Assembly (NCBI GenBank): GCA_048940925.1
Contig: JBHLOC010000010.1
Span: forward strand, 44,694-108,693
Direction: 5' to 3'
DNA from: Promethearchaeota archaeon
Lineage (GTDB): Archaea > Asgardarchaeota > Lokiarchaeia > Sigyniarchaeales > SOKP01
Length of the DNA stretch: 64,000 nucleotides
Part shown: positions 24,339 to 47,811 of the stretch, piece by piece
How positions within the stretch are numbered: position 1 is the stretch's first letter
How the letters are laid out: each line of letters opens with the position of its first letter
The notes under the pieces: generated by a model
What the model saw: the letters and a program-made list of their open reading frames with translations, nothing else
The model's database searches: none
What the model was told of the DNA's origin: nothing
Translations under genes and position numbers: made by a program

Positions 24339-24356
24339 TTTTTTGTTACCCTCGAA

Positions 24357-24866
24357 TTATTTTAATTTTTTATCAGCACCTAAATTTTTAAATAATGTTT
24401 GTACTTCATCTATATTCGGATCTCTTACTTTTGGTAAACCAAGTTGTTCTCTTCTTCTTTCTATTGCTGGTTGTGACGGAATCGCTTTAGCACTCTCGAA
24501 GACCGCTTTTGCTTGGGAATAAATAAATTCTGGACCTTTTCCTAGAACAATACTTTGATTTTTTAGAAATGTAAAGATTTCAGTAAGTTCAATATTTTGG
24601 GGACACACCTCATCGCAAGTATCACAAACAGTACAACCCCAAATTGTTAAATCATCTGCTCCAAGTAATAAATCCTTGTATCCTAAAATAGCCATTAAAA
24701 TATTTTTTCTAGGGTTATAACCTTTATCTGCGTCATAAAAATCCGCTGATACATAGGTTACAGGACAATTATCTGCACATCTACTGCATTGGTAACAATA
24801 TTTAATTACATCAGGCCCAATATGATAATCCATTACTTGTTTTCTAAACTCGAAATTTGTTTCCAT
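24357..24866 (-). CDS. hdrC: Heterodisulfide reductase subunit C (copy 1)
   Basis: CYQCSRCADNCP, IWGCTVCDTCDEVCP, RREQLGLP; directly upstream of hdrB. Confidence 0.92.
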   Translation of the reverse strand: METNFEFRKQVMDYHIGPDVIKYCYQCSRCADNCPVTYVSADFYDADKGYNPRKNILMAILGYKDLLLGADDLTIWGCTVCDTCDEVCPQNIELTEIFTFLKNQSIVLGKGPEFIYSQAKAVFESAKAIPSQPAIERRREQLGLPKVRDPNIDEVQTLFKNLGADKKLK

Positions 24867-24913
24867 TTTTTTTCCACTTAATTTTCTTTTTTCGAATGAA
24901 TTTATATTAATTA

Positions 24914-24989
24914 GTAGGCTTTAACCCCACGCAAGGGGCAGTTGTATCCAATTTCCAATATTTTTATTGGATATTCATCCTAAGCCTAC
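24914..24989 (-). promoter_or_regulatory. Candidate Sec-insertion (SECIS-like) RNA structure overlapping the vhuU stop
   Basis: Minus strand: GUAGGCUU/AAGCCUAC 8-bp outer stem enclosing AUGA, a UAUCCAAU/AUUGGAUA stem with A-rich loop, and a CCCC/GGGG hairpin; the 3' GA of a canonical quartet is not cleanly present. Confidence 0.45.
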
Positions 24990-25124
24990 ATTCAACTCTC
25001 GAGAGTAAATCTCAGTGCCCTCCTCATCAACAACAGTGATGTGAGCAGCACACGATAGTCAACAGTCAAAACAGCGAACTACCATTTCTAAGAGATTTAC
25101 TACACCTTCTGGTACATCACTCAT
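24975..25124 (-). CDS. vhuU: [NiFeSe] hydrogenase small peptide VhuU, with selenocysteine at in-frame TGA 25059-25061
   Basis: Translates to MSDVPEGVVNLLEMVVRCFDC(U)LSCAAHITVVDEEGTEIYSRELNVGLG*; the TGA sits at the first ligand of the D-x-C/U-x-x-C-x-x-H motif that the upstream large subunit lacks; not in the ORF track. Confidence 0.92.
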
Positions 25125-25163
25125 CTTTTTGTTCACTTTTTTTTAATTTTCTATATATTTAAT

Positions 25164-26471
25164 TTATTTAATCCATGGGTCTGGTAATTTTAAACTATCA
25201 AGTGCCTTGTCTTCAAATACTTGTTTAGCGACATGCATTAATGTCTTCTCAATGCCTGCTATATTATGATTTGTTGCTACTAATAGGTTTGCCTTTTTGC
25301 AAATACCTTCCGCATCAGACCATATATTGTATAAGAGTAATCCACGTGGAGCTTCAGTAACGCCAACACCATTTCCTTCTCTTGGTTGGACATCTAAAGT
25401 CTTGCAATCAGGATTCACAACATCATCATCTTGTAAGAGTGTGGCAATCAGTTCAATGGATTCTACTAATTCAATTAATCGAGCCCAGTGATAAGCAAAT
25501 GTATGATGGATTACATTAGTGCCTATTTTTGCTCTCATTGCTTGTAATGCCTCATCAGCCAAAGGGGTAGCCATCTTATCTGCACAATTAATCATTGCTA
25601 ATGTATTTGCTCGATATATCCCTTCAGGATACCCTGCTGGTTTATAATACATGTGAGTTGCATATGAATGTTTTGGAATATGTTCTCCCAGAGCATCGAG
25701 ATATCTTTGAGGTGGATAATCGAATTTTTCTCCTTCTGGACTAACAATTCTAATATCTCCTTCATAAATATCATGAACTCCGTTTTTCGTAATACCCACA
25801 TAATAAGTAGGTACAACTCCTACATTAGCTACTACATCCCAATAATCTTCAACAACCTTTAAGCCAATATCTACAGTTTTTTTAGTCCACTCTATTTGAT
25901 CTTCAATTTGTTTTAAGAATAAATCTCGGACATCTTCATCTAAAGGTTTCTTCATACCACCAACGATTGCAGAAATTGGATGCACAGATTTTCCTCCAAC
26001 TGCAGCACACAATTTTTGACCAAAATCCATCATTTTTAAAGCCATCGCACCTACATCGGGCATTTGATTAATTACGTGCACAACATTCCTTAATGCGGGA
26101 TCAGCCATAGGTCCCAATAAGAAATCAGGAGCTGCAAGAGCATAAAAATGTAAAGCATGTGAGGAATATTGTTTAGCATTTTGCAATAACTGACGTAGTT
26201 TATATGCAGGAGTAGGGATTTCAACCTGCCATGCATCTTCTACTGCTTTAGTTGGAGTTAAATGATGAGGAATTGGGCATATGCCACAAATTCTCGGTGT
26301 TATTCTAGGAATATGTTCGCAATAACGTCCCTCAAGAAACTTTTCAAAAAATCTTGTTGAAGTGATGTTGAATTGTACATCTTGTATTTTCCCATCATCG
26401 CCTAAAACAAGTTTTAAACCTCCATGTCCCTCTAGTCGAGTGACTGGTTCTACTTCTATTTCTTTTACCAT
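25164..26471 (-). CDS. vhuA: Group 3c (F420-non-reducing) hydrogenase large subunit, C-terminally split
   Basis: VTRLEGHG, RFFEKFLEGR, RICGICPIPHH, EAPRG, VATNHN; ends LPDPWIK without DPCxxCxxH. Confidence 0.95.
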   Translation of the reverse strand: MVKEIEVEPVTRLEGHGGLKLVLGDDGKIQDVQFNITSTRFFEKFLEGRYCEHIPRITPRICGICPIPHHLTPTKAVEDAWQVEIPTPAYKLRQLLQNAKQYSSHALHFYALAAPDFLLGPMADPALRNVVHVINQMPDVGAMALKMMDFGQKLCAAVGGKSVHPISAIVGGMKKPLDEDVRDLFLKQIEDQIEWTKKTVDIGLKVVEDYWDVVANVGVVPTYYVGITKNGVHDIYEGDIRIVSPEGEKFDYPPQRYLDALGEHIPKHSYATHMYYKPAGYPEGIYRANTLAMINCADKMATPLADEALQAMRAKIGTNVIHHTFAYHWARLIELVESIELIATLLQDDDVVNPDCKTLDVQPREGNGVGVTEAPRGLLLYNIWSDAEGICKKANLLVATNHNIAGIEKTLMHVAKQVFEDKALDSLKLPDPWIK

Positions 26472-26474
26472 TTT

Positions 26475-27797
26475 TTATCCCCCTCCTTTAAAATCTCTAT
26501 TTGCTGCTAAAGTAAATTTTTCAAATGTACCAATTGGATCTTTTACTTGACTAAGTAATTCTTCTTTGGACAAACTCACATTAAAACCCTTTAATACTGT
26601 GTCTGCAAATCTCTCTGCTTGATCAACGTTCCATTCTGTTTGACCAAAACAACCTGTACATGGAGAATTAACTCTTATACATAAAGCACCACAGCCAGCT
26701 TTAGTAACAGGTCCCATACAAATATAACCTTGTTCAATTAGACAGTCTTCCATATTTGGAAGCCCTTCATAATCTCTTTTAACTTTTGTCATTATTGACT
26801 TACTTCCAATAATTCGGGGACATGTGTCGCATACGTTAGAAATTTCATGGAAATCAGGATTGTCCTTCAAAAATCTTAATAAATTTGAAGAAATTTCTTC
26901 TGTTGATGGAGGTAGATTAGCTAATGGAGTGTCAGGAGTTCCATGCTTTTTAACTTGCTTTAAGATATCTCCAGATAAATCAAATCCTGCCATCAAGGGT
27001 ATATTTAAAAAAAGTGTTAAGAATTCATATAAGTTTTTTTTGTCTCCCGAATTGATTGAATTCAAATCTTTAGTCATAGTATTTAACTTTTCTGCTCTCA
27101 AATCAACTGTTTTCGCGGGTCCAAAACAACCTACACAGGGTTTTCTATCGCTCGTACATTTTAAAGTACAACCAATACTAGTAATTGAACCAAAACACAT
27201 TACTCCCTCATCAAGTAAACAGTTATCCTTTATTGAACAATCATTACAAAATGCAAGATCATTCATAGGAAAAGCTTTTTGCCCTAATAAAAATTTAACA
27301 GCGCTAACAATTTGTTCTGGTTTTGGTGGACATCCAGATATATATGCATCAACATTTATTACTTCATCAACAGGAACAACTTTATCTCTAAAGCCAGGAG
27401 TATTTATGGTCGGTTCTCCACCACTCTCATCAGATATACTTTCAACTTGAGAAAATTTTCTTCTTATTAATTCTTCTATATCCCACTGATTAGCTAATCC
27501 ATGCACGTTTCCATAGCATGCACAAGTACCAAAAGAAATCACTAAAACACACTTGTCTCTCATTAGTTTAACATTGTCATAATCTTCATTAGTTCGAACA
27601 GAACCTTCAATGAAACCAACTAAAATTGATCCTGACTCTCTTTGTTTTAATGAATCAAGTTTAAAGTCAACTACAGCTGGCCAATATACAACCTCTAGTG
27701 CTGGTAGAACTGGCAACAAACCTAAATGAGCGTTTAAAAGAGATTGATGACAGCCCCAACAGTCACTTAATTGCATAAAAGCTACTTTTACTGACAT
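26475..27797 (-). CDS. vhuG: Group 3c hydrogenase small subunit with duplicated C-terminal Fe-S domain
   Basis: DCWGC, EGSVR, GTCACYG, GCPP, then two CxxC...C..EQ/EG..C.G..T..GC...C....PC.GCFG units. Confidence 0.93.
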   Translation of the reverse strand: MSVKVAFMQLSDCWGCHQSLLNAHLGLLPVLPALEVVYWPAVVDFKLDSLKQRESGSILVGFIEGSVRTNEDYDNVKLMRDKCVLVISFGTCACYGNVHGLANQWDIEELIRRKFSQVESISDESGGEPTINTPGFRDKVVPVDEVINVDAYISGCPPKPEQIVSAVKFLLGQKAFPMNDLAFCNDCSIKDNCLLDEGVMCFGSITSIGCTLKCTSDRKPCVGCFGPAKTVDLRAEKLNTMTKDLNSINSGDKKNLYEFLTLFLNIPLMAGFDLSGDILKQVKKHGTPDTPLANLPPSTEEISSNLLRFLKDNPDFHEISNVCDTCPRIIGSKSIMTKVKRDYEGLPNMEDCLIEQGYICMGPVTKAGCGALCIRVNSPCTGCFGQTEWNVDQAERFADTVLKGFNVSLSKEELLSQVKDPIGTFEKFTLAANRDFKGGG

Positions 27798-28265: not shown

Positions 28266-28838
28266 TTAAAAATTACCGCATCCGTAACATTTCCCATCAA
28301 GATATGCGGCACAATCAGAACAAACATTCCCACAATTCACTTCTTGACTTTTCTGGCTGAAAAGATTAAGAGGTAAAAACTTCGGAACGATAAAATTTGA
28401 TACAAAAATGGTGGCTGAGTGAAGAATCCCTTTTTTATTTGTTGGTCCACAGTAATTAATATATCTATGTAACACATCAATATTCTGTCCTATGATTCCC
28501 ATAATTAAATTATATTGTCCAGTAACATGAGCTAGTAAAAAAACTCTAGGACAATCTTGATAAGCTTTAATTATATTTTGCACTTCTTCATAATTACTCA
28601 TTTCTATTAGTAGAAATAGAGATTTATATTGGAGTTCATTAATATTTGTGTTAGCTTGAACCTTAAGTACGTGAGAATCTTCTAATTTTGAAATTCTCTT
28701 TGCAATTCCCGTGTGACTCATAGTTTCATCTTTTGATTTATATATGACCTTTTCCAAGTTCAGTAAACTTTGACGTCCTTCTTTGAATAATTCAGATATA
28801 ATTTGTTTATCAATATTATCTAATAACATATTTTTCAA
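28266..28838 (-). CDS. Lrp/AsnC-type regulator with Cys-rich C-terminal tail (paralogue A)
   Basis: LDNIDKQII...GRQS...MSHTGIAKRISKLE HTH, VTGQYNL RAM-like motif, CGNVCSDCAAYLDGKCYGC tail. Confidence 0.85.
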   Translation of the reverse strand: MKNMLLDNIDKQIISELFKEGRQSLLNLEKVIYKSKDETMSHTGIAKRISKLEDSHVLKVQANTNINELQYKSLFLLIEMSNYEEVQNIIKAYQDCPRVFLLAHVTGQYNLIMGIIGQNIDVLHRYINYCGPTNKKGILHSATIFVSNFIVPKFLPLNLFSQKSQEVNCGNVCSDCAAYLDGKCYGCGNF

Positions 28839-29235: not shown

Positions 29236-29799
29236 ATGCCTCTTGATAAGATTGATAAACAGATACTTAGAGCATTATATGAAAATGGTCGAGAAAGTTT
29301 AAGTTCCTTGAGTAATATCATTACTAAATCAAATCAAGAAACTATGAGTCACACGGGAATTGCAAAGAGAATTTCAAAATTAGAAAATTCTCATGTACTT
29401 AAGGTTCAGGGAAACGTAAATATAAAGAAGCTAAATTATAGAATTGCTTTTATTTTGATTGAAATGGAGAATTTTGAAGAAGTACAAAATATAATTAAAG
29501 CTTATCAAGAATGCCCTAGAGTTTTTTTACTAGCTCATGTTACTGGACAATATAACTTAATTATGGGAATTATAGGTCAAGATATGGATGTTATACATAG
29601 ATACATTAATTATTGTGGTCCTACAAATAAAAAAGGGATTCTACATTCTGTAGTTATTTTTGCTTCTGAATTTTTATTCCCTAATTTTCTTCCTCTTAAC
29701 ATTTTTAGTGGTATCAGTAAAGAATATAAATGTGAAAACATTTGTAAAGTTTGTGACGCCTTCCTCGACGGAAAATGCAAGGGATGCGGTAATTTTTAA
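29236..29799 (+). CDS. Lrp/AsnC-type regulator with Cys-rich C-terminal tail (paralogue B)
   Basis: Same architecture as 28266-28838; CENICKVCDAFLDGKCKGC tail. Confidence 0.85.
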   Translation: MPLDKIDKQILRALYENGRESLSSLSNIITKSNQETMSHTGIAKRISKLENSHVLKVQGNVNIKKLNYRIAFILIEMENFEEVQNIIKAYQECPRVFLLAHVTGQYNLIMGIIGQDMDVIHRYINYCGPTNKKGILHSVVIFASEFLFPNFLPLNIFSGISKEYKCENICKVCDAFLDGKCKGCGNF

Positions 29800-29952: not shown

Positions 29953-30069
29953 TTTAAGTAATGCTTATAAAATAAGCATTTTTTTTTAAATTTAAAACAA
30001 TTTAACTTAAAAAAAAATAATTCGCAAAAATTATAGGCTATTTTTAAAAATTAAAAAGTGAAAGCAAAA

Positions 30070-30714
30070 ATGAAGAAAAAAATTTTTCGGATATTCATAA
30101 TTTTCTTATTTGTCTTCGCTGCAATAGGTACAGTTAATGCATGGCCAGGCCATATGATTGAATGGGAAAAAAAAGATCATGGCTCCTGTCATTCTGGTGA
30201 ATATACTGTCGGCTCAGGTGGTTTGACAGGCGTAGTTACTCCAACTGGAACAAAAACACCTGGTCAGCAATTTACCGTTGAATTAGATATCAAAGGTTTT
30301 ACGGAGGCTGCCAATAAACATGTTGTTGTTGGTGTCTCAGCACGGTTAGCAGATAACAACAAATTTTACCTAGGTGTTCAAGAGGAAGATGATGCTCATT
30401 ATGCAGAAGGAGTTGAAGTTGGATTAGATAGTTCTGGTAATGCAAATAATACAGTAATTTTAGAATTTTATGCGCCTACTGAAGATGGAAATTATACTTT
30501 GAGTATAATCGCAGCTGAAGGGGGAGAATCTTATGCTACAGCACATGCTTTTAATTACCTTGAATTACTCATACCTACAGAAGTAGTTACTCCAAAAAAG
30601 GGCGGTGAAACTATTCCTGGTTTTGATTTGTACATAATACTTACTGTTGGACTTTTAACCAGCGTTCCGATTGTTTTAATGGTTATCCGTAAATGGAGAA
30701 AAATAAAGAGATGA
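30070..30714 (+). CDS. Exported, membrane-anchored putative c-type cytochrome with HxxCH motif (Reeler-like beta domain, IPGF-TM anchor)
   Basis: Signal peptide ending VNA-WP, HGSCH at 30178-30192, IPGFDLYIIL...RKWRK tail; next to ccm genes; ATG 30070 preferred over GTG 30058. Confidence 0.7.
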   Translation: MKKKIFRIFIIFLFVFAAIGTVNAWPGHMIEWEKKDHGSCHSGEYTVGSGGLTGVVTPTGTKTPGQQFTVELDIKGFTEAANKHVVVGVSARLADNNKFYLGVQEEDDAHYAEGVEVGLDSSGNANNTVILEFYAPTEDGNYTLSIIAAEGGESYATAHAFNYLELLIPTEVVTPKKGGETIPGFDLYIILTVGLLTSVPIVLMVIRKWRKIKR

Positions 30715-30720
30715 TATAAA

Positions 30721-31377
30721 ATGAAAAAAAGTTTAAAACTAATGGCTGTGGTATTATCTGTATTTTTACTGAGTTTTATAGGATACGCACTTGCTCATCC
30801 TACCAGTATCGTATCCTATTCAGGATCCACACATACAGGATGTCATGGAGCTAATAATCCAGGTTCTGGAACACTCTCGGTAACAACATCCGTATCTGGT
30901 CGAGTAATTACTCTAACAGTTTCAATAACAGGATTTACCGAAGCTGTTACTCCTCCCTATCATGGAACAGTATCAATAGGACTTCCATATGGATATGGTG
31001 ACAATAATCTATTTGGACAGGGGATTAGTATGAATAATGTTCAGGGGGAGAATAATTATTGGGCTACTAGCATATGGGAAGAGAATTTAACATCAACTGG
31101 AGATACGATGCATGATTATACTTTTAAAGTTCTTGCCCCAGAAGCAGCAGGTACATATGAACTCAAAATAGTCGCTTTAACAGGTATGAATATTACTGAA
31201 AATGAAGTACCTCTCTATAATCTTGAACAGACCATAACAATAACAGTCAAAGGAAATGCCGTTACAATCGCTTCCTTATCTTCAACTTTTAATTTTGGAA
31301 ATTTTCTCACATATATCCTATTCGGTAGTATTGCACTTGGTCCTCTTGTTTTAATTCTCTTACGCAAAAGAAAATAA
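30721..31377 (+). CDS. Exported, membrane-anchored putative c-type cytochrome with HxxCH motif (paralogue 2)
   Basis: Signal peptide ending ALA-HP, HTGCH at 30832-30846; shares GFTEA, DNNxF and AP...G.Y.L.I with paralogue 1; C-terminal TM plus RKRK. Confidence 0.7.
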   Translation: MKKSLKLMAVVLSVFLLSFIGYALAHPTSIVSYSGSTHTGCHGANNPGSGTLSVTTSVSGRVITLTVSITGFTEAVTPPYHGTVSIGLPYGYGDNNLFGQGISMNNVQGENNYWATSIWEENLTSTGDTMHDYTFKVLAPEAAGTYELKIVALTGMNITENEVPLYNLEQTITITVKGNAVTIASLSSTFNFGNFLTYILFGSIALGPLVLILLRKRK

Positions 31378-31531
31378 TTAAATTTTCACTATTTTTTTTT
31401 ATAAACTCAAATTTTAAATTCTAAAAATGAATGTCCTACATGTTAAAAAACATAAAATTGTTGTCCTACTACAAAAGATTCAACTCATTCATTATAAGAA
31501 ACTATTGTATTTAGATTAAAGAGAAAGAACA

Positions 31532-32278
31532 ATGAAGTTAAATATTCCTAAATTTTATAAAACTAATTTTTTGTTGATCATTTCTCTTGTAATGTTGGTA
31601 CTCAACCTATCTTTTATTATAATAGGAACTTCATTTAATTTCTTTATTTGGGATGAACCTAACAGAATTGTATACATCATATTTTTTTATCATGTTTCAG
31701 GAGCTTGGCTGGCTTATTTTTCATTTGGAATCAGCTTGATCTCTCATATTATCTATCTACGGAATAAAAAGATCTTATTTAGCCAAATTGGAAAAAATAG
31801 TGTAATTGTAGGTGTTTTTTTTACAGCATTTGCTTTAATAACTGGATCTTTATGGTTTAATGCAACCTCTGGCGGTTATAGCAATAATATAAATGCTTAT
31901 TGGCAGTGGAGTGATGGTAGACAAATTATGACTTTTGTTTTGCTAGTATCCTATTTAGCGTTCTTAATTTTCAGAAGTATGATTGAAGATAAAGAAAAAA
32001 AAGCAAGGTTATCATCAGCTTTAGGTATCGCATTATTTCCTACAGTACCTTTAAGTTATTTTTCGGCAATAATATTTGAATCTTTACACGTATTAATTAG
32101 CCCAACTCCAGGTGAACCTGGAAATATATATTTGGATCCCGTTAAAATTTTTATATTACTTTTTAATTTAATAGCGATGACTATTTTTTTTGTGTATGTT
32201 GTCCAGAAATTAGTTACTTTAGATAAAGCAAATGAAAAATTAGATAAAATTATTCAAAAAAGATTAATGGAGGAATAA
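31532..32278 (+). CDS. ccmC: Heme exporter/chaperone loader CcmC
   Basis: IFFYHVSGAW (His1), ITGSLW...YWQWSDGRQ (variant WWD), SLH (His2), about six TM helices. Confidence 0.88.
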   Translation: MKLNIPKFYKTNFLLIISLVMLVLNLSFIIIGTSFNFFIWDEPNRIVYIIFFYHVSGAWLAYFSFGISLISHIIYLRNKKILFSQIGKNSVIVGVFFTAFALITGSLWFNATSGGYSNNINAYWQWSDGRQIMTFVLLVSYLAFLIFRSMIEDKEKKARLSSALGIALFPTVPLSYFSAIIFESLHVLISPTPGEPGNIYLDPVKIFILLFNLIAMTIFFVYVVQKLVTLDKANEKLDKIIQKRLMEE

Positions 32279-32282
32279 ATAA

Positions 32283-32435
32283 ATGTCAATAGAATTGCTT
32301 GAACGAGATTTAATAACAATTAGTATTAGTTATTTATTATTTTGGATTATAATAATAATTTTGATTGTTTATCCGATCATTAAATTAAATAAAACATTAA
32401 GAAGAATCAGAAGTTTAGAAAAAAATATAAGTTAA
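32283..32435 (+). CDS. ccmD: CcmD small membrane protein (50 aa)
   Basis: MSIELLERDLITISISYLLFWIIIIILIVYPIIKLNKTLRRIRSLEKNIS: one TM plus basic tail, located between ccmC and ccmE; not in the ORF track. Confidence 0.75.
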   Translation: MSIELLERDLITISISYLLFWIIIIILIVYPIIKLNKTLRRIRSLEKNIS

Positions 32436-32450
32436 ATAATCAGGAGATAA

Positions 32451-32795
32451 ATGAGTTTGAAGAAATCAAAAATTATTGCTGTAATTGGGATAGTTGCATC
32501 AATTATAGTTATAATATCGTTAGTAACAATAAATACAAGACCATATCTTCGAGTATCTCAAGTTGCAATAAAACCATCTAAATATTATAACAAAGAAATT
32601 CAAGTAATTGGGATTGTAAAAGGTTTTTCTGGGGGAAATTTTAATTTAACTGAAAATGCAGATAGTATAACCATCGATATCAACGGTATTTCTCCACCAA
32701 ATGATTTAGAAAATGGAATAAAAGTAGTTGTTTCAGGAAGATTTGTTTCATCATTAAATTTAGTTGCAAATCAAATCCTTACCCAATGCAGTTGA
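32451..32795 (+). CDS. ccmE: Heme chaperone CcmE, Cys-type, truncated after Cys-Ser
   Basis: N-terminal TM, PYLRVSQ, VIGIV, PPNDLENGIKVVVSG, A.QILTQCS*; GGAG RBS. Confidence 0.85.
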   Translation: MSLKKSKIIAVIGIVASIIVIISLVTINTRPYLRVSQVAIKPSKYYNKEIQVIGIVKGFSGGNFNLTENADSITIDINGISPPNDLENGIKVVVSGRFVSSLNLVANQILTQCS

Positions 32796-32802
32796 TCTAT
32801 TT

Positions 32803-33552
32803 TTAATCGTACAGTAAAGTTTGGGAAAGTAGAATTATAATTGAAATCATAAGAGCAATATGGGCTAGTAGAAATATAATTTCATAAAAAACGTCTGATA
32901 TTGAATAACCTCCTAATAACTTTATATTTAAAGAAATTATAGGCGTTATAATAGGCAAAATTAGAGGAAATAACAGAATTGGTAGAATAAAAGATTTATT
33001 TTTAACATACATAGAAAAAGCCGAAACTAAACTTCCGCATATTGATAAATCAAATGTGGGTAATAAAATTCCAATAATAATATAATTTAAAAACTGAATC
33101 ACATTTAAATTAATTTGAGTAGTAATATTTCCTTCAATAATAGCAGGGGCTGATAAAAAAGAACTGGTAAGGAATAAAATTGCTTCGACAAAAATCAATA
33201 ATATTAGACAGAAAAGGATCTTACTTAAAAGGATTATATTACCTGAAACGGGGGATGTGATCAAGCCACCAAGTGTTCCAGTTTCTTTTTCTTTAACAAA
33301 TAATTTAACCATGATATAGATAAGAGTAAAAAAAATAATTATCCAGTTTTCAATAACAAAAATTTCTAATGGCATATTTTGAATTTGGGTTGTGAAATTA
33401 TATACTGAAGAAAATATAAAAATAGATATAATTTCAAAAAGAAACACAGAAAATATATCATTTATTTGCCGAATTTCAGATTTGATATCTTTAAATAAGA
33501 TCGTCTTAAGTACTTTCAATCTCAGTTTAAAAGATATTTCTTTACTATTCAA
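32803..33552 (-). CDS. ccmB: Heme export ABC permease CcmB
   Basis: KDIKSEIR, FVKEKETGTLGGL..SP, ILLSK, LPILLFPLILP. Confidence 0.88.
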   Translation of the reverse strand: MNSKEISFKLRLKVLKTILFKDIKSEIRQINDIFSVFLFEIISIFIFSSVYNFTTQIQNMPLEIFVIENWIIIFFTLIYIMVKLFVKEKETGTLGGLITSPVSGNIILLSKILFCLILLIFVEAILFLTSSFLSAPAIIEGNITTQINLNVIQFLNYIIIGILLPTFDLSICGSLVSAFSMYVKNKSFILPILLFPLILPIITPIISLNIKLLGGYSISDVFYEIIFLLAHIALMISIIILLSQTLLYD

Positions 33553-33564
33553 TAAAAATTCACC

Positions 33565-34281
33565 TTAGAAATATGTTTCAATTTGAATTTCGGCATAATC
33601 TTTTTTTGTCGCTAATTTAGTAATTTTACCTTTTTTCAAAATTATTAAATCATCACATAATTGATGAAAAACGTCAATTCTATGAGTTGTTAGAATTATT
33701 GAAACATTTTCTTTCTTTTTTAATTCTAAAATAAAATTACTTAACATTTCAGACGATTTATAATCTAGCCCTGAAAAAGGTTCATCCATAAATAAGATTG
33801 ATGGGTTATGCATTAAAGATCTGATTAATTCCACTTTTTGTTTCATGCCATGAGATAAATTTTTAACGGGTTCATTGATCCAATCAATTAAATCAAATTT
33901 CTTAACATACTGTTCAATTTTGTATTTTATATTATTCTTCTCAAAATTAAAATGCAGATTATCAAAGAACTTTAAGTTTTCAAATATAGTCAACTCTTCA
34001 TAGAGAAATGATTCATCAGTAGTTATACCAATATTTTGTTTTATAATATTAGGGTGATCAATATAGTTCAATCCATCAATAACGACTTTTCCCATTGTTG
34101 GTTTTAGAAGACCTGATAAGATCTTGATTAAAGTTGTTTTTCCCGCTCCATTTGCCCCTCCAATACCAAAAATTGTATTTTTTCTAATTTTGAAAGAAAT
34201 TTTTTTTAATGCAAAAAAATATCCAAATTGCTTTGAGACATTAATACAATCTATTAGTATGTTATTTGATGCAACCATCAA
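33565..34281 (-). CDS. ccmA: Heme export ABC ATPase CcmA
   Basis: GANGAGKTT, LSHGMKQK, MDEPFSGLD, TTH; upstream of ccmB. Confidence 0.85.
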   Translation of the reverse strand: MMVASNNILIDCINVSKQFGYFFALKKISFKIRKNTIFGIGGANGAGKTTLIKILSGLLKPTMGKVVIDGLNYIDHPNIIKQNIGITTDESFLYEELTIFENLKFFDNLHFNFEKNNIKYKIEQYVKKFDLIDWINEPVKNLSHGMKQKVELIRSLMHNPSILFMDEPFSGLDYKSSEMLSNFILELKKKENVSIILTTHRIDVFHQLCDDLIILKKGKITKLATKKDYAEIQIETYF

Positions 34282-34437
34282 CTCAACACTGCTTAATATA
34301 CTGAATTTATTTTATATAATTTTAGTAAATTTTAATAATACAAAACTTTGGTTTAATATATGTATTAAGATAAGAAATTAAAAATTGGTCAAATTCAATT
34401 AAAAAAAGTAATACAAATTTATACATTGAGTGAATTT

Positions 34438-36153
34438 TTACTCTTGGATTACTTCTCTCTTTGGAAAAAAAGTGATAAGTATTGAGGGTATTATCCCTAT
34501 TAGCAATAAAAAGAAACCTGGAATGAAAAAAATATCTTTATACATTGAAGATACTAAAAAACCAGCAAGAATCAAGGAAATCCCAGCATGAATTATCGTT
34601 TTTGAATTCAATCTGAAAAAATATTTGAATCCCTTATTCAGATTGAAATTTTTTCCTAATTTAAATAATGAAGAAAATAATGAAATAAAGAATATTATCA
34701 GAATAGGATTTATCCAAATATTAAATATAATTAAAACAATATAGGATAATGCTAATTGAATCATAATTCCGATAATTATAGCCACTCCTATCCACTTAAT
34801 ATCGAAATATTCCCATAGAGAACAAAAAATAAGCGATAAAGCTAAACCAGTAGCCAAGGATAATGATGTTACTATAAAATAATCTACACCGATGAAAATG
34901 ACATCTATTGGAAGAAAATTTGAAAGTAAATGGGTGAACGGAGGAATAAAAAGGCCAAAAGTGCAAACAAATGCTAAACCAAATAAAAATAAATAACTCA
35001 AATAATCAAATAATAGTTTTTTATTTCGATATTCCTCCATCAGATAATCTAGTACAATATAAATTATATAAAGGGTAAAACAGATCAGCATAAAGCCTAA
35101 AATTACAACCCATATAACTAAGTTTGCATCTCCGGTAAATGCATGAAGAGAGCTCAATCCTCCTCCTCTTGTAATCAATGTTGAAAACACTATTGAAGAA
35201 AAAATTAAGCCTACATTTATTTTTGTCAATCTAGGATTTTTTTTCTTAAAAATTATAGTATGAAAGAAAGCTGTTATGAAAATCCAAGGAATAAGTGAGA
35301 CAGTCTCAACGGGATCCCACCCCCAATATCTACCCCAATTTGAGGCAATTTTAGCCCAATATGCCCCAAGACCTATGCTAAGTGTAAGCACTAACCATCC
35401 AAATTTCAAAGAAAAATCATAAAATCTCTGCTGATAGGAATTTAATAATTTAGAGTTACGAGTGGTAACTTCTGCAATAGTTATAATAAAAGGAATCAAA
35501 AAGATAGCATAAGCAATAAAAGTAAAAAAAGGATGCCAAATCAAGAAAGGAGAAATTAATAGTGGGTTTAATCCTCGTCCATTGGGGAAATCGGGTGGTG
35601 AATTAACTCTAAAAGGATTCAATGAAAATAAAATAAATAAAAATACAGTGGAAATTATTAAGGACATAATAACTGAGCGAATAAAAATTGAATCTTCTTG
35701 ATCTTGATTATTTAATCTATAAAAATTAATAACGACTGAATTAAAAAACATCCACGTCATGATTGAGCCTTCTTCACCAGCCCATATTGCAACAAATTTA
35801 TAAATTGGAGCTAATGTAGTGTGACTATAGTTCATAACATACACTATTTCGAAAATATTATTGATAAAACTATACATCATTAGGATGAATAATAATACGT
35901 TGATGCTCATGTTGAGGATCGATAATAAATAGTAATTTTTTCTTTTGAAAACAAGAAAAAATATATCAACAAGTATCAATGCTATTAGAATAGCTATTAG
36001 AATCATGCCTAAATAGGATATAATAAGAATTCTAGTACTAAATTCAATTAAATCTAAAATTAATGGAATGAAGAAAAACAAACCTAGAATTACGATTATG
36101 TTTAACAATAAAATTTTTCTTGATAAGAATCGATCAAACTTCATAGAGAACAT
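34438..36153 (-). CDS. ccmF: Cytochrome c heme lyase CcmF
   Basis: WAGEEGS, GRGLNPLL, WHPF, WGRYWGWDPVETVSLIPW...H, SLHAF. Confidence 0.92.
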   Translation of the reverse strand: MFSMKFDRFLSRKILLLNIIVILGLFFFIPLILDLIEFSTRILIISYLGMILIAILIALILVDIFFLVFKRKNYYLLSILNMSINVLLFILMMYSFINNIFEIVYVMNYSHTTLAPIYKFVAIWAGEEGSIMTWMFFNSVVINFYRLNNQDQEDSIFIRSVIMSLIISTVFLFILFSLNPFRVNSPPDFPNGRGLNPLLISPFLIWHPFFTFIAYAIFLIPFIITIAEVTTRNSKLLNSYQQRFYDFSLKFGWLVLTLSIGLGAYWAKIASNWGRYWGWDPVETVSLIPWIFITAFFHTIIFKKKNPRLTKINVGLIFSSIVFSTLITRGGGLSSLHAFTGDANLVIWVVILGFMLICFTLYIIYIVLDYLMEEYRNKKLLFDYLSYLFLFGLAFVCTFGLFIPPFTHLLSNFLPIDVIFIGVDYFIVTSLSLATGLALSLIFCSLWEYFDIKWIGVAIIIGIMIQLALSYIVLIIFNIWINPILIIFFISLFSSLFKLGKNFNLNKGFKYFFRLNSKTIIHAGISLILAGFLVSSMYKDIFFIPGFFLLLIGIIPSILITFFPKREVIQE

Positions 36154-36343
36154 TTAAAATGTAAAAATTTTAGAATTCTAATAAACATTTTTAAATGTTA
36201 ATGCCCAGTGCAGAAAATAGGTGAAATATTTGCTCTAATGTTTTATAAATATCTTTTTTTTTTATAATTTATCAACACAATATATAAAAACCAACCAATC
36301 ACAATCTATTAGTAAAAATTTCATACTTTTTATAGAAAGAATC

Positions 36344-37222
36344 ATGAAAAAGAAAACTTTTATCCTATTCATTACTATTATAAGTTTAGTATCAGTATCT
36401 GTAGTAATTTATAGTACTGGAAGGCCTGGCTTTGGTAACACTCATGATGTATGCCATGAATCCACAGTATATTCAATTGGAAGTAGTATATCAGGGGAAA
36501 TTCAATCTAATCCCTCAAGTTCCATTGTATTTAATATTACGGCGACTGGTCCTAATTTATTTGTTCAGGCGATTCCGGGTGCAAAAGATAATGATCTTTT
36601 CGTGATATTTCCCACTACTGAAAGAATAAATGATAGTTCGGTATTTGATTTAGATCCTACAGCAAATTCAATATTAGTAACATTTAATATCACAACACCC
36701 AACGAGACCGGATATTATACCATTTTTATCATTGCCGGAGATAATACACATGGACAAATAAAATTTGAATTTCTAGAAATCAATGTGAATGTTGGTGGAG
36801 TCGCTCCTCCTCCCCAATATGATTGGTCTACTATATTTGATCATTTAGGGTTATATTTAGGGTTACCTGCGTTAATACTTTTAACACTTGGTACAATTCT
36901 AGTATTAATAAATGAAAATAAATTCGTAAAAATACATGGAATTCTGGCAGGGGGAGCTTTTGTTCTAACTACTGTTAATTTAGTAGCAGCTCTTATAAAA
37001 ATTCCTTCAGAGAGTTGGTCTGGAGTTTTTCCCCTTATCTATCACTTACCTCATATAATTTTGGGAGCACTTGGTTTAATAGCTGCATTTTTTAGTATGT
37101 TGTTTGGAATTGCAGCAGAGCGAAGTCCTGCTAAAATAACAGGTTATATTGCTCTAATATGTTGGTGGGGCGCATTCTTTTTAGGGTATTTTCTAAACCC
37201 AAATCTATTGTTACTACAATAA
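36344..37222 (+). CDS. Putative HxxCH c-type cytochrome fused to a four-TM cytochrome b561-like domain (paralogue 3)
   Basis: Signal peptide, HDVCH at 36443-36457, DNDLF and TP..TGYYTI shared with paralogues 1-2; four TM helices with His167, His198 and His234/237. Confidence 0.65.
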   Translation: MKKKTFILFITIISLVSVSVVIYSTGRPGFGNTHDVCHESTVYSIGSSISGEIQSNPSSSIVFNITATGPNLFVQAIPGAKDNDLFVIFPTTERINDSSVFDLDPTANSILVTFNITTPNETGYYTIFIIAGDNTHGQIKFEFLEINVNVGGVAPPPQYDWSTIFDHLGLYLGLPALILLTLGTILVLINENKFVKIHGILAGGAFVLTTVNLVAALIKIPSESWSGVFPLIYHLPHIILGALGLIAAFFSMLFGIAAERSPAKITGYIALICWWGAFFLGYFLNPNLLLLQ

Positions 37223-37239
37223 CATGAGGGTATATAAAA

Positions 37240-38718
37240 GTGAATGAATCTAATAATGTAGAAATAAAAAACAAAATAGAACAAAAAGATAAGCAAAGTC
37301 TAAAAGATCAATTCTTAGAATTTATCTCTCCTTATCATGTGAGTACTAACCTATATGAACTTGAGTCTGCCTCAGCAGATCTTACTTCCCTGCCATCATA
37401 TCATTACAAATTTAAAAAAGAATATCTGGCTAGTCATATCGTTAGACCAGCAAATACTCATGAACTTTCATTAACAATTGAAAAATGTAGAAAACTTAAT
37501 ATCCCCGTTACAATAAGGGCTGCTGGTACTTCTTGTTTCTCCTCAGCAACACCTTCAAAAGGAGGTGTAATTATAGATATACGTAGATTGAATAGAGTTA
37601 TTGAAGTGGATAAAGAGAATATGACAGTAAAAGTTGGGGGTGGAATTTCGTGGTTAAATTTAATAGAAGCACTGGCGGATTATGGTCTTGAACCTAAAAG
37701 CTTTCCAACAAGTTTTAAAACATCATGCGTTAGTGGTTTTATTGCAACTCCAGGTAAGGCAGGGATTGGTATTCTAAAGTATGGAACTATGGAAGATACT
37801 ATTATTTCACTAGAATTAGTTAAACCAGATGGTTCTGTGATAAATCTCACAAGAGAATCAAAAGAAGATATTACTCTTAATGATGTTGTAGGGACTTATG
37901 GGATATTTGGTGCGATTGCAAATGTGGAATTGTCTGTTACTACTCTAAAAACATCATTAGAGACTATAGGTTATGGTTTTGATTCAATAGCTCAAGCATT
38001 TGATTTTTATTCTACTATCAAAAATGATCTACCAAATAAACCACTATTCCTTTCAATTTCAGAAAGGGATTTTGAAAAATACTCTCATGTGAATTTTCCA
38101 AAACAAAACTGGTTAGTGTGGGGAGTATTTTATGACGATCCTGAGGAAACATCAAAGAGTATTTCACAAGTTAAAACTATTGCTTCGAAAATGAATAGTT
38201 ATGAAGTTGAAAGTTCCTATTTAAAAGAAAAATGGCGAGATATTAGTGATGCTGAAGTATCAATAGGATTATCAACAAGAAATTTAATTTTTCAAGAATA
38301 TTGGATCTCTGATGAGAATTTACAAGATTTTATTCAATTGTATGTAAATAATAAGAAGAAATATAAATTTCCAATTGCTTCATATGTTATTTCAGGGGAA
38401 AAAGGATGGACACGGGTAAAGATTTTTGGACTAACTAACATTAATAAACCAATAGAATTCTTTACTGTAAAAGCATTTTTACATGATTTAGCTATTCAAG
38501 CATTTAAACAGGGAGATAGATTATATACTATCGGAATAGTTAACACCTTTTATTTGCATAAATATAAACCTAAAGAAGTATTAAAATGGAAAAATTTAAA
38601 AGATAAATTAGATCCAAAAAACCTATTTAATTCTTATCGATTAACTGATGCAAGAATGAAGTTTTGGAGAGTATCATTGCTTTTTAATGTAGCGAAACTT
38701 TTATACAAAATTTTTTAA
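37240..38718 (+). CDS. FAD-linked oxidoreductase (GlcD/D-lactate dehydrogenase fold)
   Basis: IVRPANTHE, PVTIRAAGTS, GGVIIDIRRLN, GTYGIFGAI, KDKLDPKNLFN. Confidence 0.85.
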   Translation: MNESNNVEIKNKIEQKDKQSLKDQFLEFISPYHVSTNLYELESASADLTSLPSYHYKFKKEYLASHIVRPANTHELSLTIEKCRKLNIPVTIRAAGTSCFSSATPSKGGVIIDIRRLNRVIEVDKENMTVKVGGGISWLNLIEALADYGLEPKSFPTSFKTSCVSGFIATPGKAGIGILKYGTMEDTIISLELVKPDGSVINLTRESKEDITLNDVVGTYGIFGAIANVELSVTTLKTSLETIGYGFDSIAQAFDFYSTIKNDLPNKPLFLSISERDFEKYSHVNFPKQNWLVWGVFYDDPEETSKSISQVKTIASKMNSYEVESSYLKEKWRDISDAEVSIGLSTRNLIFQEYWISDENLQDFIQLYVNNKKKYKFPIASYVISGEKGWTRVKIFGLTNINKPIEFFTVKAFLHDLAIQAFKQGDRLYTIGIVNTFYLHKYKPKEVLKWKNLKDKLDPKNLFNSYRLTDARMKFWRVSLLFNVAKLLYKIF

Positions 38719-38838: not shown

Positions 38839-40182
38839 ATGAGTGAAGGTAAAGAAAAGAAAGATTTAAGAGATGTAATAACAACTGGTCCACCTGTTGC
38901 AGGTTTAGTTTCTCCATCAAGAGAGAATCTTATTGAACCTTTAGAAACTTTTAAAGATGAAAACGCCTACGAACGTTGTACTCATTGTGGGTACTGTCGT
39001 CACGTCTGTAAAGTATATAATACTTCTTGGAGTGAAACAGATTATGCAGGAGGTCGGAATAGGATTATTAAAGCATTGAGTCGGAAAGATGCTAAATTTG
39101 ATAAAGATGAAATTATTCCCTCTGTATTTCGATGCATGTTATGTGGAAATTGTAGGGTTGTGTGTCCTGTCCAAATTGATACATTAAGTGTTTTTCAGAA
39201 TTTTAGGAAACAAGTTATAAAAAAGGGGGCGATCCCTGAAAAGTTGAAACTTTTGAGAAATTCAATTATCGAAAATAATAACCCATATCTTGAAAAACAT
39301 GATGAAAGATTCAATTGGACTAGATCATGTGAAGAAGGTGCCCAAGCATATGAACGTTCTATACAAAGAGATAAAATAATAGATAAAGAGGAAAAACCTT
39401 ATAGTGTTGGATATTTTGTCGGTTGTACTTCCTCTTATCGAAATAACGAGCTTGTATCTGCTACTAGTAAAGTTTTGGATAAACTTGGAGTTAATTTTAC
39501 TCTATTTCCTGAAGAACAATGTTGTGGGTCAGTATTATTCAGAACTGGATTAGAGGATGAGGCAATGGAACTTGTAAAACATAATTATGAGATGATTCGT
39601 AATAGTGGTGTAAAAGATGTTGTTTTTTCTTGTTCTGGTTGTTTTTCAACGTTTACATTAGAATATTCAAAATTCGCGAATTACAACTTAGGATTTAATC
39701 TTTATCACATAACTCAATATACTTTAAAAAAAGTAAAGGAAAATAATCTTAAAATCAGATATACAAAACGAACTAAAGAAGATCCATTGCTTATAACTTA
39801 TCACGATCCATGTCATTTAGGGAGATATTGTGGAGTTTTTGAGGAACCAAGAGAACTTATTAGAAGGATCGAAGGTGTAAAGTTGTTTGAAATGAAACAT
39901 AATAAAGAAATGTCTTGGTGTTGCGGTGCTGGGGGTGGAGTAAAGGCTCTTTATGGAGAACTTGCGACCGAAGTAGGTAGAGATAGATTGACTGAAACTC
40001 GGAGTTGTATGATAAGAATTAGAGAAGATCGTTTAAAAGAAGCAATTGAAACTAGTGCTGAAGTTTTAGTAAGCTCTTGTGTCTTCTGTAAAAATAATCT
40101 ATATCAAGTAGCAAATGAAGATAAATCCCCGATAAAAGTTATGGATATTTCACAATTATTAGCTGACTGTGAATTCTATTAA
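38839..40182 (+). CDS. GlcF/HdrD-like Fe-S oxidoreductase (2x[4Fe-4S] + two CCG domains)
   Basis: CTHCGYCRHVC, CMLCGNCRVVCP, YFVGC, QCCG, CSGC, YHDPCHLGR, WCCGAGGG, SCVFC. Confidence 0.9.
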   Translation: MSEGKEKKDLRDVITTGPPVAGLVSPSRENLIEPLETFKDENAYERCTHCGYCRHVCKVYNTSWSETDYAGGRNRIIKALSRKDAKFDKDEIIPSVFRCMLCGNCRVVCPVQIDTLSVFQNFRKQVIKKGAIPEKLKLLRNSIIENNNPYLEKHDERFNWTRSCEEGAQAYERSIQRDKIIDKEEKPYSVGYFVGCTSSYRNNELVSATSKVLDKLGVNFTLFPEEQCCGSVLFRTGLEDEAMELVKHNYEMIRNSGVKDVVFSCSGCFSTFTLEYSKFANYNLGFNLYHITQYTLKKVKENNLKIRYTKRTKEDPLLITYHDPCHLGRYCGVFEEPRELIRRIEGVKLFEMKHNKEMSWCCGAGGGVKALYGELATEVGRDRLTETRSCMIRIREDRLKEAIETSAEVLVSSCVFCKNNLYQVANEDKSPIKVMDISQLLADCEFY

Positions 40183-40589: not shown

Positions 40590-42866
40590 TTAGTCGGTTA
40601 ATTTCTCATTTAAAAAGGGAATATCAAATACAATATTACTACTAGTTAATTTTGGATAGGATTCGAATTTACTTATTAAATGCTTTGAACAATCAGAGTT
40701 AAGATTCTTATCTAGTCTAAATTTATTACTATTTATGGGATAATCAAAAATATTTTTAATGTGGCTATAATTTAATGTAATTTCTTCAAGATTTTTTACT
40801 TTTTTAATAGATTTTGGAAGTGCTATCAGCTGGTTGTTATTTAAATTTAACTTTTCAAGTGAACTAAGTTTACCTATTGATTTGGGTAAAAAACATAATT
40901 TGTTTCCATTTAACCATAATTGTTTAAGAGATTTCAGCATTGCTATTGATTCCGGGATGTAATTAATCCGATTTTCACAGATGTTTAAAACTTCAAGTGA
41001 GCCTAGAAAACAAATCGACTCAGGTAGTTCTTCTAATTGATTATCACCCATCTTTAAAACTTTCAGAGATTTTAGTTTTCCGATTGCCTTGGGGAGAATT
41101 TTAATTTTATTGAGAGAAGTATCTAGATATGTAAGCAATGAGAGGGAGCATATTGAACTAGGTAATTTTTTTAATTTATTATTTGTTAAATGGAGAGATT
41201 TAAGAGTAATCAGCGCCCCAATAGACTTAGGTAATTTCTCTAACTTATTCCAGCCTAATTTTAGAATTTCTAAAGACTTAAGAAGCTCTATAGTTTCAGG
41301 TAAATATGAAAGGTTATTATCTTCTATATTTAGAATTTTAAGTGTCGAAATCGAGTTAATTGAGCTTGGGAGCTCGCTCAATTTATTATTAGTTAAGATA
41401 AGCTGTTCAAGAGAATTTAGTAATCCTATTGATCGAGGCAATTCATTTAGTCTATTAGAGCTTAAGTTTAACAATTGAAGATATTTGAGAGAACCTATTG
41501 ATGAGGGAATAGTTCTTAGAATGTTCATTTCAACTTTTAATGTTTTTAAAGAATGCAAATACCCTATTGATCTAGGTATTTCTTTAAGTTTATTATTGCT
41601 TAGATCTAAATGTTGGAGGGAAGAGAGTGTCCCTATCGAATAAGGTACTTTTTCTAATTGATTATCACTTAAATTCAACAATTTTAGAGATTGTAATGAC
41701 GAAATTGATCTAGGGATAAAATTTAGGTTATTTCCTTCTAAATCAAGAATTTCTAAATTACTAAAAGATCCAATAAATTCAGGTAGGGTGTATATCTTAC
41801 ATCTTTTTAAAATTAAAGATTGCAATGATCTAAAATATTTGAAATATTCTGGAATTGTTATCAAAGAATCTCCTTTCATTTGAATCTCAATTATCTCACT
41901 GTCTTTTACTTTATATTTTACTGAGGGATATTTCAATTTTAAAAAAGAAATAGTTAAATAATTCCTAAAAATGTCTGATAATTTTGATAGCGATAAACTT
42001 TTAAGAGTATTATCCTTCTTTACACGATCTTTTAGTAGAAATTTAAATTTTTCATCATCTATATTGTTTAATTGAGAAAATAATATAGTTTTTGCTATAT
42101 TTTTGTTTATTCTTTCTATTGCTTGAATTAAAGCAAGAGAACTCATATAAGTGAATTCGTTATTAAAAATCCATTTTAGAGAAAAGAATCTCAAATCCTT
42201 AAGATGACTTAAATTTTTTATTCCCAAAATATCACTATGATCTTGTAGGGCATATCTATCTCTCCAATAAACAGTTAGATTATCTACGTTCGAAAAATCT
42301 AATTCAGTAACATACCCTTCTTCAATCTTAAATTCGAGTCTATCAAATTTGCTTTTTAAATGTTTTATTGTTATATAATTAATGAGAATTTCTGCTAATA
42401 TTTGATCTGGAATTTTGTCACATTTATTATTTACTAATATGGGAAATAAGCTTTGAGTAATTCCTTTAACTTCAATTCTTTTTATTTCATTTATCAAGCT
42501 AGCACTTATCCGATCATCTCTGATCTCTGCAAGGGATTTAATTATAATGAGTAGGCAATTATAAGATGATTCATGCTGTAATGCCCAAAGAAGAGGTTTT
42601 AATCCTTTTTCCAAGAACTTAGATTTTATAACCTTTGCCGCTGAATATCTCAGATTTTCATTTTCATCAGAGATGAGTATACTTTCTAAAACTTTAAATA
42701 CCTTTGAATGATTGAAATTGAGTTTATTTAAGATTTCTATAGATTCTTTTCTAATTTTATCATTATCAATATTTTCGATTAGTGAAATTAAAAGATCAAT
42801 AGTTTTAGTTATATCTATGCGACTGTTTCTATAATTCTCATAAACTTCATTTGGAGTAATACTCAT
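40590..42866 (-). CDS. HEAT-repeat plus leucine-rich-repeat protein
   Basis: N-terminal SDENENLRYSAA HEAT unit; many 23-aa LxxLPxSIGxLxSLxxLxLxxN repeats. Confidence 0.9.
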   Translation of the reverse strand: MSITPNEVYENYRNSRIDITKTIDLLISLIENIDNDKIRKESIEILNKLNFNHSKVFKVLESILISDENENLRYSAAKVIKSKFLEKGLKPLLWALQHESSYNCLLIIIKSLAEIRDDRISASLINEIKRIEVKGITQSLFPILVNNKCDKIPDQILAEILINYITIKHLKSKFDRLEFKIEEGYVTELDFSNVDNLTVYWRDRYALQDHSDILGIKNLSHLKDLRFFSLKWIFNNEFTYMSSLALIQAIERINKNIAKTILFSQLNNIDDEKFKFLLKDRVKKDNTLKSLSLSKLSDIFRNYLTISFLKLKYPSVKYKVKDSEIIEIQMKGDSLITIPEYFKYFRSLQSLILKRCKIYTLPEFIGSFSNLEILDLEGNNLNFIPRSISSLQSLKLLNLSDNQLEKVPYSIGTLSSLQHLDLSNNKLKEIPRSIGYLHSLKTLKVEMNILRTIPSSIGSLKYLQLLNLSSNRLNELPRSIGLLNSLEQLILTNNKLSELPSSINSISTLKILNIEDNNLSYLPETIELLKSLEILKLGWNKLEKLPKSIGALITLKSLHLTNNKLKKLPSSICSLSLLTYLDTSLNKIKILPKAIGKLKSLKVLKMGDNQLEELPESICFLGSLEVLNICENRINYIPESIAMLKSLKQLWLNGNKLCFLPKSIGKLSSLEKLNLNNNQLIALPKSIKKVKNLEEITLNYSHIKNIFDYPINSNKFRLDKNLNSDCSKHLISKFESYPKLTSSNIVFDIPFLNEKLTD

Positions 42867-47732: not shown

Positions 47733-47811
47733 ATTTTCAGATTCCTCTTCAGTTTAATAAAAATTATATAATACATTAAGTGTTTAATTATTGTTTAACA
47801 GATTGAAAACC

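Follow-up and report, generated by a model that had tools for sequence, protein, structure and literature searches.

Putative surface cytochromes of Asgard archaea with histidine in place of the first cysteine of the c-type haem motif, encoded beside a variant System I

Results

Three H-x-x-C-H proteins around a ccm locus

The DNA studied here, called the window, is a stretch of 64,000 nucleotides from the assembly GCA_048940925.1 of a Promethearchaeota archaeon (contig JBHLOC010000010.1, positions 44,694 to 108,693, forward strand; G000:C48:44694-108693 in our numbering, where G000 is the whole genome). It contains a set of cytochrome c maturation (ccm) genes bracketed by genes for three exported proteins, named types A, B and C, which carry the motif H-x-x-C-H with a histidine at the place of the first cysteine (Cys-1) of the C-x-x-C-H motif of c-type cytochromes. 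The genome has a size of 4.82 Mb and a GC content of 29.6%, and its marker genes indicated 100% completeness with 8.4% contamination. Asgard taxonomic families are designated by codes: f1 is the family of the window (Loki-type according to database labels), f9 is its sister family and f16 is a further one. The genes of the locus are as follows.

30058-30714, plus strand: type A surface protein, HGSCH at residues 41-45; signal peptide, immunoglobulin (Ig)-like beta-sandwich, C-terminal PGF.. with a transmembrane (TM) segment and a basic tail
30721-31377, plus strand: type B surface protein, HTGCH at residues 38-42; signal peptide, beta-sandwich, C-terminal TM anchor
31532-32278, plus strand: ccmC; Pfam Cytochrom_C_asm 43.8 bits, both conserved His, insertion in the WWD loop
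32283-32435, plus strand: inferred ccmD-like gene, 50 residues, single TM segment, no family match; place and size kept in the related locus L001 (8470-8622)
32451-32795, plus strand: ccmE variant ending in ILTQCS-stop; Pfam CcmE 33.4 bits
32803-33552, minus strand: ccmB, ABC-2 permease; Pfam CcmB 32.2 bits
33565-34281, minus strand: ccmA, ABC ATPase; Pfam ABC_tran 108.7 bits
34438-36153, minus strand: ccmF haem lyase, 571 residues; Pfam 99.7 bits, NCBIfam CcmF/NrfE 158.6 bits (below cut-off)
36344-37222, plus strand: type C, HDVCH ectodomain fused to a four-helix TM bundle (sequence features, alignment and AF2 model)
37240-38718, plus strand: cytoplasmic FAD-binding oxidoreductase, GlcD-like; Pfam FAD_binding_4 111.5 bits, NCBIfam glcD 107 bits (below cut-off)
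38839-40182, plus strand: cytoplasmic Fe-S protein with two CCG domains, HdrD/GlcF/TfrB-like; Pfam CCG 106.7 bits and Fer4_8, NCBIfam TfrB 187 bits (below cut-off); synteny conserved

A first-pass annotation of the window had described three secreted, membrane-anchored paralogues around the ccm genes, and this description was exact for the open reading frames (ORFs) 30058-30714, 30721-31377 and 36344-37222. The three proteins share 27-32% pairwise identity. Each begins with a hydrophobic signal in which A-x-P is conserved, continues as an ectodomain rich in beta structure and ends in a TM anchor that has a basic tail, an architecture of exported proteins. The motifs start at window nucleotides 30178 (HGSCH), 30832 (HTGCH) and 36443 (HDVCH). 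Inspection of the sequence confirmed also that the first His of the motif is encoded by CAT in all three genes and that each exported domain contains a single Cys, the second Cys of type C (residue 273) being located in a TM helix. None of the three exhibits a canonical c-type motif (C-x-x-C-H, C-x(3,4,15)-C-H or CxxCK), Cys-1 being replaced by His in every case, and HxxCH was kept in all type B orthologues (43-84% identity).

The AF2 model of type A (pLDDT 85.7) showed an Ig/macroglobulin-like sandwich with a best Z of 9.6. Fold searches with the ectodomain (Foldseek, VIA and Atlas) returned generic Ig, macroglobulin and CARDB-like sandwiches only, among which cytochrome f (2jxm_B; Z 7.0, root mean square deviation 4.1, 126 aligned residues) was the sole structural match aligned from the mature N-terminus. 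No Pfam or NCBIfam model covers the three proteins, and a profile search of PDB sequences gave no meaningful match, including none to cytochrome f. The C-terminus of type A (window 30613-30714; ..IPGF.., a TM segment and RKWRKIKR) matched NCBIfam Loki-CTERM below threshold (16.3 bits, cut-off 19.9), which suggests a sortase-like processing of the anchor. Elsewhere in the genome, two paralogous doubly anchored surface proteins (G000:C18:17304-18014 and G000:C48:1915-2556), both missed by the family profile, exhibit HSFDGCH (H-x4-CH) about 90 residues from the start.

The family in f1 and f9 Asgard genomes

A HMMER search run exhaustively against 1.84 billion representatives returned just 43 relatives, and those sources that are named were Asgard in every case. 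The labels of database relatives are likewise Asgard throughout (Promethearchaeota, Lokiarchaeota, 'Thor', 'Hod', 'Hermod' and the LCGC14 Loki's Castle metagenome). On these searches, this family of H..CH/C..CH surface proteins is restricted to Asgard archaea. The family profile matched in 57 of 301 sampled Asgard genomes, with 17/68 in f1, 36/76 in f9 and 2/11 in f16.

Motif statistics were obtained on 96 aligned domain sequences from about 45 genomes. The C and the H of the C-H pair were present in 96/96 members. The residue upstream was His in 44/45 f1 sequences and never Cys; in f9 it was Cys in 48/49 and never His. The profile of the HxxCH proteins matches f9 homologues whose canonical motif, C-x(1-5)-CH, is found at the same place as the f1 motif, after the signal peptide. 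The variation in spacing runs parallel in the two families, with x2 (36), x3 (4) and x4 (3) in f1 and x2 (23), x3 (3), x4 (18), x5 (1) and x1 (1) in f9. The homologue search that the first-pass annotation had proposed as a check of its reading was also extended to type C, for which 120 non-redundant database homologues were collected: 112 exhibit H-x(1,2,4)-CH, one CNSCH and one neither residue, and six are N-terminal fragments. The first His is thus conserved across f1 and in 112 of 114 full-length type C homologues. With the C-H pair invariant and the upstream His almost so in f1, the HxxCH motif cannot be ascribed to chance. On this comparison, f1 holds a lineage-wide His-for-Cys variant of the ordinary c-type motif family of f9, and the comparative signal for such a variant is unusually strong.

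Other forms of the family were observed. Several f1 genomes (L036, L038, L040-L044; for example G222:C94:32875-33381) encode, inside the same locus, proteins of 800-966 residues with the family domain at the N-terminus (H-x2/x3-CH); this long form has no counterpart in the genome of the window. Haem synthesis and one Cytochrom_C_asm gene are present in the f16 genomes and CcmE is absent; the f16 family members in which the upstream residue is neither Cys nor His lie at L021:8794-9756, in L057 and at L104:1605-2597 and 3308-4300. In the f16 genome G181, the lone synthase gene adjoins two exported 330-residue proteins with CGECH.

Linkage to ccm and search for other clients

CcmE (PF03100) was found in 63 of the 301 Asgard genomes, 48 of which have the family as well. 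Within f1, all 16 CcmE-positive genomes have the family (16/16), and the two family-only matches were both weak and partial. The order of one or more A-B pairs, ccmCDE, ccmBAF, type C, the FAD-binding gene and the CCG gene is kept in L001, L002, L004 and L105 (two other assemblies and a metagenome contig). In f9, the family genes adjoin ccmE, C, B, A, ccmF and a cytochrome with seven CxxCH motifs. The linkage to ccm, which the first-pass annotation had also proposed to check, was seen in every genome examined, so that on both of the points by which sequence could have refuted that annotation the outcome was in its favour.

The absence of exported CxxCH proteins noted earlier in the window was confirmed and could be extended by a genome-wide scan to the whole 4.8 Mb. 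None of the 46 CxxCH-bearing ORFs of the genome has an export signal, and a whole-genome scan for exported C-x(2-5)-CH or CxxCK proteins gave nothing credible. In the same way, PF00034 and PF09699 were absent from all f1 genomes scanned (0/71). Only one exported protein of the genome has CxxCK close to its N-terminus, a 618-residue repeat protein with CFDCK right after its signal peptide (G000:C37:3259-5115), which is probably unrelated to haem. The cluster of a related f1 assembly encodes a second A-B pair and an exported EB_dh-domain (haem-b type) protein with PGF, a TM segment and a basic tail (L001:3453-4643); the EB_dh domain is absent from the genome of the window.

The Ccm machinery of f1

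The genes ccmA, B, C, E and F of a System I set stand together, with Pfam matches over cut-off for all five and an additional ORF of ccmD size. All ten f1 CcmE copies end in QILTQCS-stop; the f9 copies read C-P-S-K-Y, of the archaeal CxxxY type. Among 102 non-redundant database homologues of CcmE, about 95 end in C-S-stop and none exhibits CxxxY. The f1 CcmE has thus neither HxxxY nor CxxxY: the Cys is retained, the Tyr is gone and the chain ends at C-S. In the f1 CcmC, neither His varies, and the W-rich loop persists with an insertion of 4-7 residues (WQWSDGR in place of WNW-DPRE in the aligned f9 CcmC). CcmF shares with the f9 CcmF an invariant WGWDPVE and His 207, 298, 337 and 522, that is, a WWD motif and four His, which we take from E. 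coli CcmF to be the P-His and TM-His residues. It has about 115 C-terminal extracytoplasmic residues fewer than the single f9 CcmF compared. From these alignments, the catalytic residues of the Ccm proteins are intact (four His and WWD of CcmF, two His of CcmC, Cys of CcmE), and the f1 CcmE and CcmC appear remodelled in step with the motif. The proposal of the first-pass annotation that this Ccm system is dedicated to HxxCH proteins holds, with a genome offering no other candidate client and with CcmE and CcmC altered along with the motif. DsbD_TM was counted with respect to the idea that a loss of CcdA/DsbD, and hence of thiol reduction, explains the single-Cys clients: the genome of the window has a borderline match (27.4 bits, cut-off 27.1), no match was seen in G192, and three f9 genomes contain one or two.

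Haem supply

The 100%-complete genome of the window contains no ALAD, PBGD or glutamyl-tRNA reductase (GlutR). ALAD was found in 0/68 f1, 1/76 f9 and 9/11 f16 genomes. A gene resembling cytochrome bd subunit I (67.9 bits; G000:C49:8173-8886) is present in the genome of the window. From their gene content, nearly all of the f1 and f9 Asgard archaea sampled appear to use haem while being auxotrophic for it. Auxotrophy is here no argument against haem, since the f9 archaea with canonical cytochromes are auxotrophs as well.

Gene tree of the motif forms

In the gene tree, the f1 sequences form two groups (types A/B/D and type C) with the f9 Cys forms between them. On the f1 sequences alone, a single His clade was not rejected by the approximately unbiased (AU) test (p-AU 0.105). 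A CNSCH orthologue, P0151, and a 'PYDCH' form, P0146, branched at the base of the type C clade (SH-aLRT 98). When both were added and the motif columns removed, an all-His clade cost 43 log-likelihood units (p-AU 0.00125), values that come from quick trees and from a test group defined partly after the tree was seen. Since a single clade of all His forms is rejected, two or more changes of the motif state would have taken place, either as parallel events or as one change and a reversal; in the established f1 lineages, as read from these sequences, the swap settled on His.

The type C membrane bundle and the dehydrogenase genes

The TM bundle of type C was modelled by AF2 as four helices with a pLDDT of 91. 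It contains four invariant His (167, 198, 234 and 237), three of which lie close to the outer face and the fourth close to the inner one. Comparison with the b561 family gave an E of 0.0048 and 17.6 bits for PF03188 (cut-off 23), with one of six sequences at E<0.01, and an Atlas score of 0.80. No match of the bundle to PF03188 or PF01794 was significant, and fold searches returned generic four-helix bundles only. Type C is always followed by the GlcD-like and the HdrD/GlcF/TfrB-like genes. The only f9 locus examined (genome G140; L017-L018, G140:C1:110000-149999) has three FAD_binding_4 and Fer4/CCG pairs around its cytochromes. The same f9 locus encodes a stand-alone four-His TM bundle, a DUF2231 membrane protein and an amine-oxidase-like flavoprotein.

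Neighbouring genes

Two putative regulatory genes precede the locus.

28266-28838, minus strand: Lrp/AsnC-like regulator with a C-terminal Cys cluster; weak matches to Pfam HTH_AsnC and AsnC_trans_reg, paralogue of the 29236-29799 gene
29236-29799, plus strand: second Lrp/AsnC-like regulator with a Cys tail, directed toward the cytochrome/ccm genes; Pfam HTH_AsnC-type 27.4 bits, NCBIfam LysM/AsnC-type below cut-off

The pair also precedes the locus in L001 and L004, and the 28266-28838 protein is a candidate for the control of the cytochrome/ccm genes. An assignment of the two AsnC-like genes as siroheme decarboxylase (AhbA/B) was rejected, the genome being without ALAD, PBGD and GlutR. On the other side, the locus adjoins a gene for a 758-residue leucine-rich-repeat protein (window 40590-42866), and a similar leucine-rich-repeat protein lies beside the L004 locus. 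Two [NiFe]-hydrogenase small/large subunit-like sets with HdrA/B/C-like Fe-S/CCG proteins flank the locus (window 23460-27797 and 44813-50176), and maturation genes of HypE-like (AIRS) and HypF type are found at 50275-51327 and 53471-55882.

Discussion

The f9 homologues carry the canonical motif beside ccm genes and a multihaem cytochrome, and for that reason we regard the family as one of c-type cytochromes in which His stands for the first Cys in f1. The first-pass annotation had taken the HxxCH proteins for c-type cytochromes, a view supported by the canonical C-x(2-5)-CH found at the same position in the f9 sister homologues. Our preferred reading, held with moderate confidence on the comparison of sequences, is that types A, B and C are Asgard surface-anchored beta-sandwich monohaem c-type cytochromes, with H-x(2-4)-C-H in f1, matured through a single thioether by a co-remodelled variant of System I. 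We infer from sequence the attachment of haem, the chemistry of the bond and the direction of electron flow.

The following course of maturation is proposed. Because tetrapyrrole synthesis is missing, the organism would scavenge haem. CcmC would load it, on the outer face of the membrane, on the C-terminal Cys of the truncated CcmE. CcmF would then transfer it to the apoproteins, where the single conserved Cys would form one thioether and the adjacent His would serve as the proximal ligand of the iron. The upstream His, in the Cys-1 place beside the second vinyl, might bond that vinyl, or might position the haem or the motif for CcmF; a bond to the vinyl is possible, and we would not count on it. 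A broader proposal seems to us rather unlikely: that these proteins form a third chemical class of System I product, having a Cys thioether together with a His-vinyl bond (or a His needed functionally in another way), a co-evolved Ccm system, a CcmE ending at its haem-binding Cys, and a swap made independently in the paralogue lineages. If such independent swaps took place, the maturation machinery and not the individual protein would set the motif.

Most simply, the locus may be read as encoding a path that carries electrons outward, from a dehydrogenase in the cytoplasm to cytochromes on the surface. Electrons would pass from the GlcD-like flavoprotein and the HdrD/GlcF-like Fe-S protein to the four-His bundle of type C, on to its fused ectodomain and then to the anchored types A and B. 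The f1 cytochromes would probably form the outer end of this path from FAD/Fe-S dehydrogenase through the four-TM bundle to the surface.

Several observations weigh against the cytochrome reading or its details. No conserved distal ligand (Met, His or Lys) was found in the alignment, in which the invariant residues outside the motif are N100, F103 and P140. In the family members of two f16 genomes, the residue upstream of C-H is neither Cys nor His. To our knowledge, the System I of E. coli does not detectably mature single-Cys (AxxCH) variants, and a working HxxCH client would for this reason require a changed Ccm specificity. The parallel-change test is not significant without P0151 (p 0.105), and the composition of P0151 is biased. 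A similarly short CcmF also accompanies the canonical CNSCH form, so the shortening is not tied to the His motif. Finally, the Z of 7.0 with cytochrome f lies within the generic Ig-like range.

Three other explanations were weighed. In the first, which we consider improbable, the Ccm proteins would only export haem: scavenged haem would be delivered outside the membrane and bound there as haem b, non-covalently, by the H..CH proteins and the four-His bundle, the Cys being a ligand or structural. Such a role would suit an organism that does not make haem and yet requires it outside the membrane, and the exported EB_dh protein of the L001 locus as well as the lost Tyr ligand of CcmE point the same way. 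Against it stand the intact CcmF lyase with its four His and WWD motif, the C-H pair, as invariant here as in the canonical f9 homologues, and the lack of EB_dh in the window's own genome. The second explanation, still less probable, is that the His/Cys/His triad of f1 forms a Cu, Zn or Fe site in proteins that no longer bind haem, ccm being retained for another reason. H-x(n)-C-H does offer three classical metal ligands on an Ig/cupredoxin-like sandwich, and the cupredoxin domain of AmoB appeared (Z 6.6) among many generic matches. However, ccm occurs in f1 only with this family and has no other client, the locus has no copper-chaperone context, and the spacing of the first ligand varies from x2 to x6, which haem motifs tolerate and which would be unusual for a preorganised metal site. 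That the proteins are haem-free surface descendants of cytochromes and the ccm locus a relic is very improbable: loss of the canonical motif and of haem synthesis would agree with decay, but none of the six ccm ORFs is disrupted, nor is the H..CH motif, and their conservation extends over two genera and upwards of 100 non-redundant database sequences; the replacing residue, moreover, is His and not random.

Both cysteines of CxxCH are considered necessary for covalent attachment by System I. Covalent His-vinyl links occur in proteobacterial holo-CcmE (His130) and in the cyanobacterial globin GlbN. These cases are precedents for the addition of an imidazole to a haem vinyl, a reaction open in principle to the f1 His in the Cys-1 position; in contrast to the proteins proposed here, the bond of CcmE is transient and that of GlbN spontaneous, and a cytochrome c lyase gives neither of them as its final product. 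With cytochrome f, the f1 proteins share a beta-sandwich ectodomain, a haem motif a few residues past the mature N-terminus (X-Pro) and a TM anchor at the C-terminus; the two are not similar in sequence, and the likeness of the models is one of layout and no evidence of kinship.

Among the closest known systems is the variant System I of archaea and Desulfovibrio, in which CcmE has CxxxY and CcmH is missing (Allen et al. 2006, cited in PMC4429474). The f1 locus resembles it in having ccmA, B, C, E and F, in lacking ccmH and ccmG, and in a Cys for the His of CcmE, and f9 has its exact form (CPSKY). It differs in that the f1 CcmE stops one residue past the Cys and has no Tyr, that the WWD loop of CcmC carries an insertion and that the clients have a single Cys. 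Related in motif are the mitochondrial cytochromes c and c1 of euglenozoans, with A/FxxCH and a single thioether (PMC8262978), a natural c-type motif having only the second Cys and the His. The euglenozoan proteins are class I helical cytochromes with Ala or Phe at position 1 and a eukaryotic non-Ccm maturation, whereas the f1 proteins have a beta-sandwich, System I and a conserved His. SfmD, a bacterial haem protein with HxnHxxxC, has also one Cys-vinyl bond together with His ligation (PMC8179489), but its fold, its motif and its cytoplasmic maturation are unrelated.

In our literature search, 'HXXCH' appeared in no paper, and queries combining Asgard or Lokiarchaea with cytochrome c maturation, biogenesis or CcmE returned nothing on this system. 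A search of sequencing runs listed DNA runs from sediment and mangrove only, with no RNA runs. Taken from sequence comparison, the findings point to an undescribed way of fixing haem to protein. If this is correct, a prokaryotic lineage with His for the first Cys in every client, a trimmed CcmE and an altered CcmC would change the two-cysteine picture of System I, and the canonical f9 and variant f1 would offer a comparative system for the roles of each Cys, of the CcmE Tyr and of the WWD loop. Asgard archaea are usually scored as having no cytochromes c, because motif searches miss the f1 proteins and domain searches, for which there is no Pfam model, miss those of both f1 and f9. About one fifth of the sampled Asgard genomes carry the family, beside a dehydrogenase module that resembles an outward electron path, which bears on models of syntrophy; and haem auxotrophs that mature cytochromes would imply haem scavenging in sediments.

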